Assembly (NCBI RefSeq): GCF_003334255.1
Contig: NZ_QOWU01000014.1
DNA: 64,000 nt
DNA from: Escherichia coli
GTDB taxonomy: Bacteria; Pseudomonadota; Gammaproteobacteria; Enterobacterales; Enterobacteriaceae
Strand: one strand, 5' to 3'
Within the stretch, counting starts at the first letter, position 1. Each line of letters begins with the position of its first letter. Positions 55,380-64,000 of the stretch are shown in pieces. Both the position numbers and the translations under genes were made by a program. Under the pieces are notes generated by a model. The model made no database searches. It saw only the letters and a program-made list of their open reading frames with translations, and had not been told where the DNA came from.

Positions 55380-57293
55380 TTACTTACGACCTGCCAGCAG
55401 TTCCAGCACTTCATCCACGCTGGTGGTGTGTGCCAGACGCTCGATGACGGACTCATCATCCAGTGCATTGGTCAGGCTGGTGATAACCTGAATGTGCTCG
55501 TTGTTACGGGCAGCAATACCAATCACCAGACGGGCAATGTCATCTTCTTCTTCACCGAAGCGCACGCCTTCCGGGTACTGGCAGAACACGACGCCCGTTT
55601 TCAGTACGCGATCTTTCGCTTCAACCGTACCGTGTGGCACCGCGATAGACTCACCCAGATAAGTCGGGGTCAGTTTTTCACGATCCAGCATCGCCTGAAC
55701 GTATTCCGGCTCAACGTAACCGCCTTTCACCAGCTGCTCGCCAGCAAAACGAATCGCTTCTTCTTTGGTTGCCGCTTTGCGACCGAGGAAGATGTTCTCC
55801 GCGCCTAGCTTGAACAGGTTAGCACTGGAATCGTCAAAGCTGTCTTTCAGGCTGTCTTTTACTTTCTCTTCGTTTGCCGTGTGGCGTTGGGCAGCAACCA
55901 GACGTTCGGTCAGGCTGGTGTACAGGCCGCTGTCGAGGAAGTTGGTCAGCGAAATATGCTGTGCCTGCGGAACCTGGCGCATAGCGCGTTCGGTCAGGTC
56001 ACGGTGAGTGATGACGAGGTCCACATCTGGCGGCAGGTTGTTGATCGCGCTGTTAGTAACAGAAATCTGCGACAGACCTGCATCCTGAATTTTCTTACGC
56101 AGAACGCCTGCGCCCATCGCACTGGAACCCATACCGGCGTCACAGGCAACGATGATTTTACGTACGTGGCTCAGGTCGTTAGTCACATCGCCAGCAGACA
56201 GCGGAGATGCGCCTTTAGACTCAGCTTTCATGTCCTGCATACGACGAGTTGCTGCTTCAATATCATCTTCTTCTTTCACTTTGCTGGTTTTCAGCAAAAT
56301 AGCAGAGACAACGAAGGAGACAGCCATCGCCGCACACACACCCGCGATGTTAGCGAAGTAAGCACCTTTTGGTGTCATCGCCAGTACAGCAAGGATAGAA
56401 CCCGGAGATGCCGGAGAAACCAGACCACCGCCCAGGATAGTCAGCGTGAACACGCCAGTCATACCGCCGAGGATGACTGCGAGGATCAGACGCGGATTCA
56501 TCAGCACATACGGGAAGTAGATTTCGTGGATACCCCCCAGGAAGTGGATGATTGCCGCACCGCCCGCAGACTGTTTAGCGCTACCACGACCAAAGAACAT
56601 GTACGCCAGCAGCACGCCCATACCTGGACCTGGGTTAGCTTCAATCAGGAAGAAGATTGATTTACCCAGTTCATGGGACTGCTGAATACCCAGCGGCGAG
56701 AAGATACCGTGGTTAATGGCGTTGTTGAGGAACAGGATTTTCGCCGGTTCAACAAAGATAGACGCCAGCGGCAGCATGTCATGGACAACCATGAAGTTAA
56801 CGCCCGCAGCCAGCATTTTGGACAGGGCTTCAACAATCGGGCCAATGCCGAGGAATGCCAGAATAGCGAGGATCATCCCGATGATGCCTGCGGAGAAGTT
56901 ATTCACCAGCATCTCAAAACCGGATTTGATCTTACCGTCTACCCAGCGGTCGAAGTGCTTAATGCACCAGCCGCCCAGCGGACCTGCAATCATAGAACCG
57001 AGGAACATCGGCATGTCTGCGCCGACGATAACGCCCATGGTGGTGATGGCACCGACTACGCCGCCACGTTCGCCGCCTACCAGCTTACCACCGGTATAAC
57101 CGATCAGCAGCGGCAGGAGATAAGTGATCATCGGCCCGACCAGCTTCGCCAGCGTCTCGTTCGGTAACCACCCTGTTGGAATAAATAACGCGGTGATGAT
57201 ACCCCACGCGATAAACGCGCCGATATTTGGCATCACCATGTTGCTGAGGAAACGACCAAAGCTTTGCACTTTGATCTTAATATCGGATGACAT
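55380..57293 (-). CDS. mtlA: PTS mannitol-specific EIICBA component
   Basis: 637 aa [39 protein letters not shown]. Confidence 0.95.
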
Positions 57294-58194: not shown

Positions 58195-59331
58195 ATGGAT
58201 CTATTGATTGTTTTAACTTACGTGGCGCTGGCGTGGGCGGTCTTTAAAATCTTCCGCATTCCGGTAAATCAGTGGACGCTGGCGACGGCGGCGCTGGGAG
58301 GCGTGTTTCTGGTGAGTGGTTTGATTTTGTTGATGAACTACAACCACCCTTACACTTTTACCGCGCAAAAGGCAGTGATAGCGATCCCTATCACGCCACA
58401 GGTGACGGGAATTGTTACTGAAGTCACTGACAAGAATAATCAGCTTATTCAAAAGGGCGAGGTGCTTTTTAAGCTCGACCCGGTTCGTTACCAGGCGCGA
58501 GTTGACAGACTTCAGGCTGACCTGATGACGGCGACGCATAATATAAAGACGCTGCGTGCGCAGCTCACTGAAGCGCAGGCCAACACCACCCAGGTTTCAG
58601 CGGAGCGCGACCGTCTGTTTAAAAATTATCAACGTTACTTGAAAGGCAGCCAGGCGGCGGTGAATCCGTTCTCGGAACGTGACATCGACGATGCGCGGCA
58701 AAATTTCCTCGCGCAGGATGCGCTGGTGAAAGGCTCGGTGGCGGAGCAGGCGCAGATCCAGAGCCAGCTCGACAGTATGGTTAACGGCGAGCAATCGCAG
58801 ATTGTGAGCTTAAGAGCGCAACTTACTGAAGCAAAATATAACCTTGAGCAGACTGTCATTCGCGCGCCGAGCAATGGCTACGTTACTCAGGTACTGATCC
58901 GCCCAGGTACATACGCAGCTGCCTTGCCGCTGCGTCCGGTGATGGTCTTCATCCCCGAGCAAAAACGGCAAATTGTCGCCCAATTTCGGCAAAACTCGCT
59001 GTTACGTCTGAAACCCGGCGATGATGCGGAAGTGGTGTTTAACGCGCTACCTGGGCAGGTGTTTCACGGCAAACTGACTAGTATTTTACCTGTCGTGCTA
59101 GGCGGTTCTTATCAGGCGCAGGGGGTATTGCAATCATTAACGGTCGTGCCCGGCACGGACGGTGTGCTGGGAACCATTGAACTGGACCCTAACGATGATA
59201 TCGATGCCTTACCCGACGGCATCTACGCCCAGGTGGCGGTTTACTCCGACCATTTCAGCCATGTTTCGGTGATGCGGAAAGTGCTGCTAAGAATGACCAG
59301 CTGGATGCATTATCTTTATTTGGATCATTGA
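58195..59331 (+). CDS. yibH: HlyD-family membrane fusion protein
   Basis: 378 aa with N-terminal TM and coiled-coil; 3 bp after yibI. Confidence 0.85.
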
Positions 59332-59790
59332 GGGGGAGGGGGGAGATTATGGAACTTTGCTCCTTGTAAGGACTAATTATTTTTGCATATTACTTCATTA
59401 GCTGCGATGATTTTTCTTTAATATTCATTATGTTAATAAGTTCTGGATGAGTGTGCTCTCATTGGATTTTTTATCCGTCTTGTTCTGCCGCAGGATGAGA
59501 CTATACATCGTCGAGATCGCAATGATGATATGAGTTGTTCCTCCTGCGACGGCTCTAATCAAAAAAGAGCAGGAGTGCTTTTCCATCTATTGCGATGATG
59601 GCTTTATTATCTGAAGGATGACAGTCACATTTAAAAAATATTTAATCTATAGATCACAATGTAGGGTCATGGAATATATGTATACAACTATTTTCTTCTT
59701 CACTTTTAATTATCGTATTCATTATAAAACTAAGTTAAAAAAACTCCTGGAGAGTGAGTTATTAATATATTTTTAAATAAAATTAAGTTA

Positions 59791-60228
59791 TCATTCATCG
59801 ATGCACTTTATAGAATCATCAATGGCCATAATAGTACTATTAACTCTCAATTTTATATTTTTATCATCACTACAAATATTAACTGAATTTATATCAATGA
59901 TTTTTTTATTCTTATCTTTTATTTTATTTACTGTTTCAATGCAATCAGCGGCAAGTTGGAGTGGATTTAGATTTTTCAGATATGGTCTTATGATCTTTCC
60001 CTTACTTAATAAATAGCATGTATAGGATTCGGAAAGTCCAGCATCTATTTTGTACCTCATTATATTAGATAAGGATGTGAGAAATTCCTTGTTATCATTC
60101 GCAGCCATATATGCCAGTCCGAGTTCAGCCTCTGCGGCCTTACAGGCAAAATAGCTTAGTGAACACGCTTTTCGTCCCTCTTTAGTACTGGCTGATATTA
60201 GTGCCCATAATATTGCTTTGTCTGCCAA
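59791..60228 (-). CDS. hypothetical protein, possible immunity gene of the decayed rhs module
   Basis: 145-aa AT-rich ORF immediately downstream of the rhs remnant; TTG start in track, first in-frame ATG is 40 codons in; weak Sel1-like segment KAAEAELGLAYMAAND. Confidence 0.35.
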   Translation of the reverse strand: MADKAILWALISASTKEGRKACSLSYFACKAAEAELGLAYMAANDNKEFLTSLSNIMRYKIDAGLSESYTCYLLSKGKIIRPYLKNLNPLQLAADCIETVNKIKDKNKKIIDINSVNICSDDKNIKLRVNSTIMAIDDSIKCIDE

Positions 60229-60316
60229 ATCTAACTCTCTCTGAAATTGTCTTGCAGTAACTGCACTCGCAGAAATAGAGAAAAAAATACAATTGTTAAT
60301 AATCTTGCCATATTTT

Positions 60317-60930
60317 TTAGTCCGTAACTGTTAATGTGCTATCTGGCTCTGAAAATATTAACTCATTTAATTTTTGCATGTCATTAGATAAACCAGTTAT
60401 ACAACCCTCGGAACAGAATCGAGGTCCTAAAGACGGACCAAAAGCGTTTAAACAACTATGTATTGAAAATCCATTGCGATTATAAGTTCCTGTATTAACT
60501 GACGGTACTAATCGTATGCCGTCAGGTTTTCTATTGCTTGCTCCCGGGTCATTAACATTCCAACTCCATAGGCCTTGAGGTATTGGCCATCTATTTATAA
60601 ATGTGTACAACGGGGATTATTTTTACATTGCATATTATTACCAGAAGCGACTGGAATACTAAGCACATCATAAAAATTATCATCACATGGTATATCTGAA
60701 ACACACGAAAGCATACCTAAAGTTATGCTGTATAAACAGGTGGCTAATCCCAAGGGGATCGATTCCAGAAATCGGGTTCAACGGATACTGATAAAAATTC
60801 CACCTACCTTCCAGCCCAATCGGAGCCTGAGTGTTATACCGCCCCTGCTGCGGTTAATGTTACCGATAATAGTTATAGTACAGCCCTGATTCATCATCAT
60901 ACTACTGCTGCGGCAGTCTGATGAACTATT
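60317..60930 (-). pseudogene. decayed orphan rhs C-terminal fragment (frameshifted)
   Basis: 60750-60930 encodes a degenerate Rhs core end ([32 protein letters not shown]) that hits a stop near 60600, while a 97-aa ORF 60317-60610 continues in another frame. Confidence 0.55.
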
Positions 60931-60934
60931 GCTT

Positions 60935-61396
60935 TTACGGATTCTCCTTATTCTTCCTTCTATCCATTCGCTTTAGCTTTTTGAGCTCTTGAAGTTTGCT
61001 CTTTGCATCAATATTACCGTTATTTACAGCGAATTCCATCCAATAAATAGCTCTATTCAAATTATAATATTCTGATAATGTTGGATTTGTATCTGATAAA
61101 AAGACCCCATAATTAAACTGCGCTGTAACATTCCCCTGAGATGCTGATCTTTCCAAGAATCGCAATTGTTTGTAAATGTTATTTTTAGTAAAGCAGTAAT
61201 ATTGATATAGTCGAAATGATGCCTCTGAATCACCATGTTGTGATTTATACTTCAGTTTCATCAACTTTTCTTCACTTAAATCATAGGTCATTGCTGTAGA
61301 CCCCATCATACTTTCGTTTTGTTTTATTTTCACATCAGCACCATGCAATTGACAAATAAAAGAGAAATAAAAAAATAGTAACAAGCATGCTTTCAT
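60935..61396 (-). CDS. yibG: Sel1-repeat protein with N-terminal signal peptide (YibG-like), candidate immunity protein
   Basis: 153 aa; hydrophobic N-terminus MKACLLLFFYFSFICQLHG then Sel1-like repeat SASQGNVTAQFNYGVFL; directly downstream of orphan rhs tip. Confidence 0.75.
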   Translation of the reverse strand: MKACLLLFFYFSFICQLHGADVKIKQNESMMGSTAMTYDLSEEKLMKLKYKSQHGDSEASFRLYQYYCFTKNNIYKQLRFLERSASQGNVTAQFNYGVFLSDTNPTLSEYYNLNRAIYWMEFAVNNGNIDAKSKLQELKKLKRMDRRKNKENP

Positions 61397-61407
61397 ACAT
61401 CTACAAC

Positions 61408-62346
61408 CTATCTTATATCACTGGGTTTTTCTGGCGTACCTTGCATATTAGAAATGGGGTGCCCAGATGGCCCATATGTTATCCAATTACCAAGGTCTTT
61501 TGTTGTTATAGCCATTAGATCCTTATTTGAATTAAGGTTCGTTGGTGCTGTTAGCACTGTATCCATTTTTAACTTACCATTAGTTCCTCGCCCCCACCAC
61601 GTCCATAGCGTGTCAGGTCCTATTACATTTGTATGTAACTCTTTAGCTAATTGGCTAGCAAATGAATTTTGTCCTTTACCTGTATTACAAGAAAATAACC
61701 AAACTGTCATCCCATCTTTATAATTCCCATCAAATTTAATTAGATATGCTAGATCTTTAGCTGTCATGATACTGCGCGTTGCGGATTCAATAGATGTGGG
61801 GGTACCATGCCCCCCGATTGTGAAAACGCCTGGGATATTAATCTCATCAGCTACAGAATGGATAAGATCACTTTCGGGGTATAAATTTATATCAACCAAA
61901 CCTTGCGGATCTACATTTATGACCGGATTCAACGGATACTGATAAAAATTCCATCCCCCCTTCAGTCCAATCGGATCCTGAGTGATATACCGCCCCAGCA
62001 GCGGGTCATAATAGCGGTGGCGGTTGTAATACAGGCCGGACTCCTCATCATACTGCTGACCCGGCAGGCGAATGAGCTGCTGCAGATGATGCGGGTTCTC
62101 ATCACTCAGCAGGTTGCCCCATTCATCATATTCTGCGCACCACGCTGTTGCCCCTTCCGTGCTGATGAGCGCCAGCGGCAGGCCGCGATGGTCGCAGTGG
62201 TACAGGTGGATTTTTCGCGCCGGCGTGTACACCGGGTCCATCTGGTTTTGCATCTGCTCCACGGTCAGGCCGCACGATGCCAGCCAGCGGCGGCTTTCCT
62301 CACTCACCCGGTCAGCCAGGATTTCACTTTCCAGCCGGTCGAGCAT
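61408..62346 (-). CDS. orphan Rhs C-terminal toxin module (core end plus variable CT)
   Basis: starts inside Rhs core homology (MLDRLES...[26 protein letters not shown]...[39 protein letters not shown]) followed by about 160 aa of unrelated sequence; ATG at third codon of track ORF. Confidence 0.75.
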
Positions 62347-62393
62347 CTGCACCGTGCCGGCGGGAATCCCCCACTGTGCATAGGCAACTCACG

Positions 62394-63236
62394 CTATGAA
62401 CGCTTCAGCTTATCAATAGCGGAAGTTATAATTTCATTGTCATCAAACTTGTACAACATAGTATCTAAAACAGGAAGTAGCGTTTTATCACCTAATTCAC
62501 CCGCAGCTTCAATGATATCATCATAAACAGTATTTTTTTTTAACTCATCGCATAAAACAGATAAAACCCTTTTATCTTTTCTGTAGGAAAGTCCGATTAT
62601 TGCTTCAATACGGACTTCCTCATTTTTATCCTGAAGCATCTCCACAAAACAATCCCTAATATCACTATTATCATATTTATTGATATTTATTGCAAATGCG
62701 GCCCAGTTTCTGACATCTCCATTTGGATCTTTTAACAGATTAATCAATAGTGGAATTGTTGCTTTATCATTGATAACAGAAATAGCAAATGCTGTAGCAC
62801 GTCTGACATTAGTCGATTTATCAAAAGCAGTAATTTGAGATTGTTCTACTATTTTAGGTGAATAAATTGGGTTTTTCTTGCATCGCTGAGCTGTTGACTC
62901 GATTGCCGTAGCTCGAACGCAAGCGCTCTTATCATTCAATGCCATATTGTTCAAAATATTAAAAACATTATCTTCGCATTTTTTGCAAATTTTTATTTGC
63001 CCGAGTATAAATGCTCCGATATCTCTACGGATATAATTTTTATCAGAGCAGAACTCAATTGCCAATCTAACAGCGTCTTGCCCACCTCTTAACTGTAATA
63101 CTCTGGCAGATGAAATCCTTTTCAAGGAATTGTGATCATCAAGTAAGCGAAATAATTCATCATCATTTAGTTTCTTACATTGATTATATAAACCATACTC
63201 TTTACTTGCCTTTCTTTTCTGGTATGTATTTGACAT
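62394..63236 (-). CDS. yibA: HEAT-repeat protein YibA, candidate immunity protein for the main Rhs tip
   Basis: 280 aa from internal ATG (MSNTYQKRKASKEYGLYNQ); directly downstream of main rhs stop. Confidence 0.8.
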   Translation of the reverse strand: MSNTYQKRKASKEYGLYNQCKKLNDDELFRLLDDHNSLKRISSARVLQLRGGQDAVRLAIEFCSDKNYIRRDIGAFILGQIKICKKCEDNVFNILNNMALNDKSACVRATAIESTAQRCKKNPIYSPKIVEQSQITAFDKSTNVRRATAFAISVINDKATIPLLINLLKDPNGDVRNWAAFAININKYDNSDIRDCFVEMLQDKNEEVRIEAIIGLSYRKDKRVLSVLCDELKKNTVYDDIIEAAGELGDKTLLPVLDTMLYKFDDNEIITSAIDKLKRS

Positions 63237-63256
63237 TGCAGGAACCTCCACAAGGG

Positions 63257-64000
63257 CTATCTTTTTTTATCGTTTGACTGTCTGGAGTGACGACAATTCC
63301 AGGCTTTCTGTGTGCTTTTTGCATCTTTAGCACTAATATCACCACAATCAATTAGTTCCTGAAGTACGTCACATCTGTCGGGTTTTTTCCCATCACTCCA
63401 GAATCTGTCATTTATTATGTCATTGACACGATCAGTTATCCCTGTGTCTGCAACATTTCCACGAGAAGCTATCATTGTTATATCTAATGCTAGTCCCGGA
63501 TTATTCAATATTAGAGAGTCAAATATTCTTTGTGATGCTGTATCGTTCCACCATTTTGTCAATGCTTTTGCAGCATTATCATCTGCTTGCTGCTGTGCAG
63601 GGCTTTTGGGCCATGGAATTGGCAAGGGGAATGGTCTAGGAAAAACTTCTAACCCCAGAGGATCTGTATTCGTAACTGGATTCAACGGATACTGATAAAA
63701 ATTCCATCCCCCCTTCAGCCCAATCGGATCCTGAGTGATATACCGCCCCTGCAGCGGGTCATAATAGCGGTGGCGGTTGTAATACAGGCCGGACTCCTCA
63801 TCATACTGCTGCCCCGGCAGGCGGATAAGCTGCTGCAGCTGATGCGGGTTCTCTTCATTCAGCAGGTTGCCCCATTCATCGTATTCTGCGCACCATTCTG
63901 TTGTCCCTTCCTTGCTGATAAGGGCCAGCGGCAGGCCGCGATGGTCGCAGTGGTACAGGTGGATTTTTCGCGCCGGCGTGTACACCGGGTCCATCTGGTT
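63257..64000 (-). CDS. rhsA: 3' end of main rhs gene (core end plus C-terminal toxin tip), partial at window edge
   Basis: frame open to window end; encodes ...[26 protein letters not shown]...[39 protein letters not shown] then about 130-aa variable tail; gene symbol by synteny only. Confidence 0.75.

Follow-up and report, generated by a model that had tools for sequence, protein, structure and literature searches.

Lesions of the third rhs module

The last cassette of the rhsA locus of Escherichia coli was analysed in a 64,000-nucleotide stretch of DNA (contig NZ_QOWU01000014.1 of RefSeq assembly GCF_003334255.1; hereafter the window), where it occupies positions 59791-60933 of the minus strand, between yibG and yibH. 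This third module is composed of a remnant of Rhs core sequence, a toxin tip of the Tlde1/DUF2778 L,D-peptidase type and an immunity gene of the Imm57 family. A first-pass annotation, made from the sequence alone, had listed three minus-strand open reading frames (ORFs) here, of 52 (60595-60753), 97 (60317-60610) and 145 (59791-60228) amino acids (aa), and had read them as a toxin tail split by a frameshift, followed by an immunity gene that outlasted its toxin. All three ORFs are present as listed, and the module is indeed decayed, being both the most distal and the most decayed of the locus.

The core remnant (60761-60933, minus strand), recognised by its translation, by alignment to the orphan of strain 6409 and from the note attached to it by the Prokaryotic Genome Annotation Pipeline (PGAP), represents the last ~57 codons of the Rhs core (…IRLPxQxYDxESGLYYN…). 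Homology to the core begins directly after the yibG stop codon, at ~60933, and the remnant has neither a start codon nor an N-terminal region. It contains four in-frame stops (60926-60928, 60902-60904, 60860-60862 and 60854-60856) and ends in GIDPLG in frame 1, with codons phased from 60934. At the DPLG motif that closes the Rhs core (60749-60760, minus strand), the window reads GATCCCCTTGGG where intact alleles read GACCCGTTGGG; an additional C within the run at 60754-60757 constitutes a +1 shift, by which the tip is placed out of the core frame. The core had been thought to read through DPLG into the tail, but this is not the case, as GIDPLG lies in frame 1 and the tail in frame 2, with the extra C between them. 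The 97-aa ORF is again in frame 1, sharing the frame of the core remnant because the +1 shift and a later -1 shift cancel, whilst the 145-aa ORF is in frame 2 and an ATG at 60311 is in frame 3. The core remnant is also far more diverged than the tip, with a synonymous divergence (dS) of 0.78 against 0.26-0.28.

Lesions of the tip were mapped by aligning the window to the intact cassette of strain 6409 (L004), and the intact allele of strain Ec73552 (L003) was also used. The 52-aa ORF corresponds, by the ORF list and alignments, to the N-terminal third of the toxin domain (…SGNN..QCKNNP.C) and terminates at a TAA (60595-60597). The 97-aa ORF, by its match to PF10908 and an alignment of 23 tips, represents the C-terminal two-thirds of the Tlde1/DUF2778 domain, and keeps the motif His (60458-60460) and the Cys of SEGC (60401-60403). 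At the junction of the two (60595-60600, minus strand) the intact TTA CAA AAT reads TTA TAA AT in the window, such that within 60595-60598 a C-to-T change has produced a stop (CAA to TAA) and one A has been lost (-1). Relative to the intact alleles, an in-frame deletion of 9 bp, equivalent to one GNN unit, was located at ~60644 in a conserved loop; the residues deleted are retained by all 22 other tips of the alignment, one of them with a single-residue gap. In the same alignment, the G of the near-invariant NRGPIP is replaced by W in the window, and I stands just before the motif His, where all the other sequences have T or S.

Apart from the missing start codon and delivery domain, the toxin gene carries at least seven lesions, and it contains five stop codons that stem from base substitution. 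The Tlde1 domain is spread over two frames with a stop in between and has lost three conserved residues, and repair of one single-base frameshift would leave the toxin unrestored. The single-base frameshift proposed in the first-pass annotation consequently gives way to at least two frameshifts, a nonsense codon, the 9-bp deletion and two substitutions, in a gene with no usable core or start. Alignment to intact tips, which had been suggested as a check, located the shifts at the DPLG C-run (60754-60757) and the junction (60595-60598), and upheld the view that the tail and the 97-aa ORF derive from one formerly continuous tip, joined-frame homologues being found in E. coli (L001, L003 and L004), Ralstonia and Paraburkholderia. 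Among alleles of the window type (at least 95% identity), none with an intact toxin was seen. A rare allele from a Logan assembly (P0001, on a 1,846-nt contig) has a further 2-bp deletion in ACAC at ~60595-60606, which rejoins the two frames over 131 aa (…NNPRCTFINRWPIPQG…); its frame was restored secondarily, so that it is not an ancestral intact allele, and it is the only ‘joined’ version of the window-type tip.

The 145-aa ORF (59791-60228, minus strand) matches Imm57 (PF15596) over the whole model, with an E-value of 1.9e-47, and alignment identifies it as the mature part of the protein, residues 29-173. It begins at an internal TTG and makes up the 3'-terminal 84% of a gene of 173 codons, the true start of which is the ATG at 60311, five bases past the toxin stop, followed by signal-peptide codons (MARLLTIV…; 60231-60311, minus strand). 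From this ATG, frame 3 reads MARLLTIVFFSLFLRVQ… and ends after 26 codons, whereas the intact 173-aa proteins (P0038, P0039 and the copies in L003 and L004) begin MARLLTIVLFFSISANA. The two parts of the gene are divided by a -1 frameshift at a T7 run (60281-60287, minus strand), where the intact C+T7 state reads GTGCTTTTTTTC and the window reads GTATTTTTTTC, leaving the ATG and signal-peptide codons in frame 3 and mature Imm57 in frame 2; a rare allele, P0045, has T8 at this run. The residues invariant in the Imm57 alignment are D90, S94, E95, C99 and six Cys, and the six Cys and the D…SE…C motif are all present in the 145-aa ORF, from which the signal peptide is missing. A signal-like hydrophobic N-terminus was seen in all six intact Imm57 homologues aligned, including those from a metagenome (48% identity) and Ralstonia (36% identity). 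Judged from these sequences, the six Cys and the signal-like segment would fit a periplasmic protein, as expected for the blocker of a peptidoglycan toxin. A run of seven A (59901-59907, minus strand) inside the gene keeps the ORF open, and eight A at this position constitute a second frameshift.

The ORF downstream of the tip had been rightly taken for an immunity gene; further E. coli strains, and Ralstonia too, have Imm57 next to a tip of this kind. The description of it as uninterrupted applies to the open frame that starts at the internal TTG and not to the gene read from ATG 60311, which is frameshifted at the T-run. The proposal that an intact immunity gene was retained after loss of the toxin does not hold for the window, given that start and signal peptide are lost through a -1 shift common to ~3,331 genomes.

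The frame-corrected tip matched the Pfam family Tlde1_dom (PF10908; E-value 9.9e-6), with a weak YkuD match besides, and its homologues were found at E-values of 1e-46 to 1e-83. PF10908 is precomputed for the homologues P0002 and P0006-P0011, and PGAP labels an open copy in E. coli (L001) as a ‘tlde1 domain-containing protein’. A HMMER search of 1.84 billion representatives recovered the tip type in only 183 clusters, always at the C-terminus of proteins that range from short fragments to full-length Rhs proteins of up to ~1,570 aa. Neither the reconstructed tip nor Imm57 nor the 97-aa ORF matched any NCBIfam family, a PDB sequence search with the intact tip returned nothing relevant, and a PDB profile search with the tip alignment reached only the ends of Rhs cores, via the core columns of the alignment; the fold was for this reason assigned with AlphaFold2 and Foldseek. 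The model, which represents the intact Ec73552 tip and not the window pseudogene, was built on a 23-sequence alignment and has a predicted local distance difference test (pLDDT) score of 86 and a predicted template modelling (pTM) score of 0.83. Its top eight PDB matches are all of the L,D-transpeptidase fold (E-values of 5e-5 to 4e-2), amongst them DpaA (8ikr), Bd1075 (7o21) and Ldt_fm (1zat/3zg4), and the tip is accordingly predicted to adopt an L,D-transpeptidase (YkuD-like) fold. H104 and C123 (SEGC), which form the H…[S/T]xGC motif, are invariant in the 23 sequences, including the 97-aa ORF of the window, and by the published motif (bioRxiv 10.1101/2020.02.18.954545) are presumably the catalytic residues. 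In the model, the part that the 52-aa tail encodes contains high-pLDDT beta-strands and belongs to the fold, not to a linker; the break at 60597 therefore cuts the domain, and the 97-aa ORF is no complete enzyme. We also considered whether LATC…GMLSC might be the lipobox of an independently exported orphan toxin, and rejected this, as full-length homologues fused to Rhs in beta- and gammaproteobacteria conserve this segment, both Cys included, and it falls in confidently modelled beta-strands.

Intact relatives, allele frequencies and gene neighbourhood

E. coli also holds an allele of the cassette of ~90% identity, in several states of preservation. In strain 6409 (L004) the main rhsC gene and ybfB are followed by an orphan in which 355 core codons are in frame with a complete 150-residue tip, adjoined by an intact 173-aa Imm57. 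Strain Ec73552 (L003) encodes, at the yibF-yibH locus, a full-length Rhs protein of 1,392 aa with the same tip, likewise with an intact 173-aa Imm57. Beyond E. coli, joined-frame tips occur in Ralstonia and Paraburkholderia, and in Ralstonia pseudosolanacearum (L005) the Imm57 gene lies directly 3' of a tip of 59% identity. Partial decay was seen in both directions. In the O166:H15 type (L001, 8102-9069; at least 119 genomes) the tlde1 ORF is open and Imm57 is broken by a 5-bp deletion, whereas in RIVM_C039227 (L007, 2990-3754) the 5' end of the toxin gene is deleted, the last ~77 codons are left and Imm57 is intact. Retention of immunity beside a truncated toxin, as the first-pass annotation had envisaged, thus exists in another allele, although it is neither a rule nor the state of the window.

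The rhs gene of Ec73552 (L003, 3735-7913), when compared to strain 6409 (L004, 1871-7916), is identical to the main rhsC of the latter over its first ~3,465 nt and matches the 6409 orphan thereafter, with 13 informative sites of the main type succeeded by 234 of the orphan type. This mosaic looks like the product of a natural core-core recombination in which the rhsC tip and ybfB were deleted and the orphan was re-armed. Re-arming of an orphan tip by recombination has been selected experimentally in Salmonella (PMC3967940). The window copy cannot be re-armed, because only 57 degenerate core codons are left and the tip is broken.

The distribution of the lesions was surveyed in 5,426 complete E. 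coli genomes, using 81-nt probes centred on each lesion for allele counts and sampled matches for run-length states. A megablast search with 59600-61000 found a match in 3,708 of the 5,426 genomes, always chromosomal, with at least 99% identity in 3,343. The T7 state of the Imm57 T-run is carried by ~3,331 genomes (~61%), none of 39 sampled matches differing in length, and the in-frame C+T7 state by ~316. The DPLG and junction lesions had matches in 3,489 and 3,493 genomes, respectively, and were of uniform length in spread samples. The synonymous AGA (instead of AGG) at codon 3 of Imm57 in the window was found in only four complete genomes. At the A-run, 2,141 genomes were identical to the window (7A) and another 1,182 had one difference, mostly 8A as judged from 12 of 14 sampled rows that span 82 nt; E. 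coli K-12 MG1655 is one of the latter. The second Imm57 frameshift is consequently present in ~35% of carriers of the T7 allele. Strains of O157:H7 occur in both A-run length classes. Either this run slips recurrently, or its length in part of the assemblies is a homopolymer error. The window is 99.9% identical to a strain with K-12 coordinates, and with A7 in place of the K-12 A8 has one frameshift fewer.

Insertion sequence (IS) elements disrupt the cassette in some lineages. In NZ_CP069709.1 (strain EA7) the region 59600-61000 is matched in three pieces over ~2.95 kb that includes two IS1 transposase features. In ETEC4077 (L006), IS1 and ISAs1 fragments surround the cassette, and the downstream flank is yhhJ/rbbA, not yibH.

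The ORFs around the module show the surrounding region to be the rhsA locus, running in reverse. Its minus strand carries, in this order, the last part of the main rhs gene (63257-63994), the HEAT-repeat immunity gene yibA (62394-63251), the rhs fragment rhsJ/yibJ of the second module (61408-62352), the Sel1-repeat gene yibG (60935-61396) and the third module, an order shared with K-12-like annotation. Beyond the module lie yibH (58195-59331), yibI and mtlA (55380-57293), yibI being situated between the other two. The rhsJ/yibJ fragment of the window is an uninterrupted 314-aa ORF from GTG, and its K-12-like counterpart is marked with an internal stop by PGAP. Opposite the G+C-rich rhs core fragment, the plus strand has a 207-aa ORF (61903-62526), which resembles the spurious antisense frames that are usual for high-G+C core sequence. 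The G+C content of the tip is 0.37 and that of Imm57 is 0.33, compared to 0.52-0.58 for neighbouring rhs core sequence.

In the strain with K-12 coordinates, RefSeq/PGAP annotates the module as two pseudogenes, an ‘RHS repeat-associated core domain-containing protein’ that is incomplete with an internal stop, and a frameshifted ‘Imm57 family immunity protein’. Imm57 is likewise a frameshifted pseudogene in the PGAP annotation of strain PI7, which is identical to the window over 81 nt (60240-60320), including the AGA at codon 3. In nr, the frameshifted gene also appears as a 169-aa ‘Imm57 family immunity protein’ beginning with MNNCIFF… (cluster P0036, with 788 members), called from the non-canonical start ATT 60300; annotation of the pseudogene is therefore inconsistent between records. 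The K-12 gene names for the module are presumably yibS, yibW, yibV and yibU. What K-12 annotation counts as ‘genes’ here are pieces of a single Tlde1-type peptidoglycan toxin and of the Imm57 gene that goes with it. In the literature, yibV and yibU are placed after yibG at 81.2 min, with an RpoD-binding site reported between them (PMC3946193). The promoter pattern reported for yibV/yibU (TTAACT-15-GATAAT; PMC3946193) had no match at that spacing, and a version with 18-nt spacing lies 3' of the Imm57 stop codon. Promoter scans of the module region returned sites no more numerous than in shuffled sequence, a terminator scan of the same region found none, and an Rfam scan of 59300-61000 found no RNA family.

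History of the cassette and competing interpretations

We consider the module to be, with a probability of roughly 0.86, a decayed, displaced orphan Rhs-Tlde1/Imm57 cassette, the most distal of its locus, in which toxin and immunity are both broken, and we infer that neither product is made in functional form by the window copy. Originally, the cassette would have encoded the end of an Rhs protein delivered by a type VI secretion system (T6SS), self-cleavage of which at DPLG would free a Tlde1-type L,D-peptidase to attack peptidoglycan in the target periplasm, together with an Imm57 immunity protein exported to the periplasm via Sec. In the order of events that we infer for the locus, newer tips (RhsA-CT/YibA, then RhsJ/YibG) were gained upstream and the oldest cassette was pushed downstream with 57 core codons; both genes then decayed, the toxin via stops, frameshifts, the 9-bp deletion and substitutions, and Imm57 via a -1 slip in the T-run. 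According to the model of C-terminal displacement, new tips join the 3' end of the main gene and older pairs move downstream, where they lack starts and degenerate (PMC2935791). The layout of the locus fits this model, the third module being both the most distal and the most decayed. The cassette itself is already known, in that reference annotation marks its pseudogenes, and its history is a textbook case of displacement and decay at an rhs locus. The value of the present reading lies mainly in correct annotation, the seemingly intact 145-aa ORF being a truncated gene without an export signal. Intact and re-armed versions of the cassette do circulate in E. coli (strains 6409 and Ec73552), and could provide material for a first experimental test of an Rhs-Tlde1/Imm57 pair.

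Several observations weigh against decay of both genes. Between the window and the intact allele, the ratio of nonsynonymous to synonymous divergence (dN/dS) amounts to 0.24 in the toxin domain and to 0.33 in Imm57; as these values are below 1, most of the divergence accrued under constraint, and inactivation is recent relative to the split of the alleles. The Imm57 frame is open for 169 codons from ATT 60300 in ~2,141 genomes, with the conserved residues of the mature protein intact, and low-level expression of Imm57 via a non-canonical start or slippage at the T-run may occur. The value for Imm57 is, however, not below that of the toxin, and therefore indicates no stronger constraint on immunity than on the toxin.

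One alternative is that the orphan immunity gene still works, supplying enough periplasmic Imm57 to protect against attackers with Rhs-Tlde1, which we regard as unlikely. Such a product could arise by slippage of -1 at the U7, during either translation or transcription, or from a start at ATT 60300 with a shortened signal peptide (MNNCIFFSISASA). The frame is open over 60300-59791 and conserves the D/SE/C motif together with the six Cys, the 2,141 genomes mentioned above retain the A7 that does not close it, attackers with Rhs-Tlde1 exist in the species (L003), and an intact Imm57 does stand beside a truncated toxin in some E. coli (L007). Window-type alleles are, however, at least 99% identical to one another, and since they differ by less than 1%, an open frame of 145-169 codons is expected without selection; moreover, ~35% of carriers, K-12 included, have the additional frameshift at the A-run. 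The slip site, A UUU UUU U, is not a canonical X XXY YYZ heptamer, and the 68 nt downstream of it form no stable RNA structure (minimum free energy -10.2 kcal/mol, z +1.38 against shuffles). The peptide from the ATT start is without the positively charged n-region found in every intact homologue. The O166:H15-type strains, which broke Imm57 and kept tlde1 open, speak against any general trend to retain immunity. A more specific proposal, that -1 slippage on the U7 restores the signal peptide in some of the product and so provides cheap, low-level ‘herd’ immunity in most E. coli, seems to us very improbable; if true, it would protect most E. coli against the minority of strains that deploy Rhs-Tlde1.

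It is harder still to credit that the 97-aa ORF, yibV of K-12, is a small protein that functions in its own right, for example as a shortened L,D-peptidase serving in housekeeping or regulation, even though it has 97 open codons with the motif His and Cys, bears a gene name in K-12 and adjoins the RpoD-binding site reported between yibV and yibU (PMC3946193). The ORF is missing ~55 N-terminal residues of the domain, comprising three modelled beta-strands and the invariant SGNN…QCKNN…C, and has no signal peptide despite the periplasmic location of its peptidoglycan substrate. Its TTG start was created by the frameshift, it has suffered the G-to-W and T-to-I changes at conserved positions, and in every homologue found the domain is C-terminal on a longer Rhs-type protein or fragment. 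That the frameshifts are mere sequencing or assembly errors and the genes truly intact is scarcely believable. Three of the indels do fall in homopolymer runs (C4, T7 and A7), which are error-prone in long-read assemblies, but thousands of complete genomes, independent of one another and with laboratory strains of K-12 among them, have identical run lengths, and the five substitution stops and the 9-bp deletion are no homopolymer errors. A decayed and displaced cassette with both genes broken hence remains the reading that we prefer.

Comparison with known Rhs and Tlde1 systems

Orphan rhs-CT/immunity modules (CT, C-terminal tip) downstream of full-length rhs genes have been described previously (Jackson 2009, PMC2935791; Poole 2011, PMC3150448; Koskiniemi 2014, PMC3967940), and the window module resembles them in several respects. 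It shares a strand with the main rhs gene and lies 3' of it, it has retained a core fragment that ends in DPLG (of the PxxxxDPxGL type) with no start and no delivery domain, and this fragment is followed by an A+T-rich tip (37% GC) and then by a small immunity gene. As in those modules, decay is greater with distance from the main gene. In Salmonella LT2 the orphan is intact, and recombining with the main gene can re-arm it, whereas the window module has both its toxin and its immunity gene frameshifted.

The pairing of the tip with Imm57 was predicted by Zhang et al. (2012; PMC3482391), who associated Tox-LD-peptidase with Imm57 and with RHS repeats, and it has also been noted by Sibinelli-Sousa et al. 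(bioRxiv 10.1101/2020.02.18.954545). The latter authors described Rhs-DUF2778 fusions, including in Shigella, and found the His and Cys of Salmonella Tlde1a to be required for its periplasmic toxicity. In the literature searched, no experimental test of any Imm57 was found, and none of an Rhs-fused Tlde1 member or of the Imm57 pairing was apparent.

In common with the Tlde1/DUF2778 effectors of the T6SS, the window-type tip has a PF10908 match, a predicted L,D-transpeptidase fold and the His…[S/T]xGC motif, and as in the Rhs-fused members of this group it is fused to an Rhs C-terminus and has an immunity partner predicted to be periplasmic. Salmonella Tlde1a differs in being a stand-alone effector of 173 aa, the immunity protein of which, Tldi1, belongs to the family DUF2195. 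The His-Cys spacing is 19 residues in the window-type tip, as in YkuD enzymes, compared to 10 in Tlde1a (H121 and C131), the structure of which has been published (PMC9638812). The window-type tip further differs from Tlde1a in its additional Cys-rich N-terminal beta segment, and the window copy in being a pseudogene. The immunity gene conforms to Imm57 (PF15596; PMC3482391) in its strong Pfam match, its mostly alpha-helical character, its conserved D, SE and C residues and its position immediately downstream of a Tox-LD-peptidase tip. Intact members of the family are 173-180 aa long with a signal sequence, whereas a frameshift has deprived the window copy of its ATG and signal peptide.

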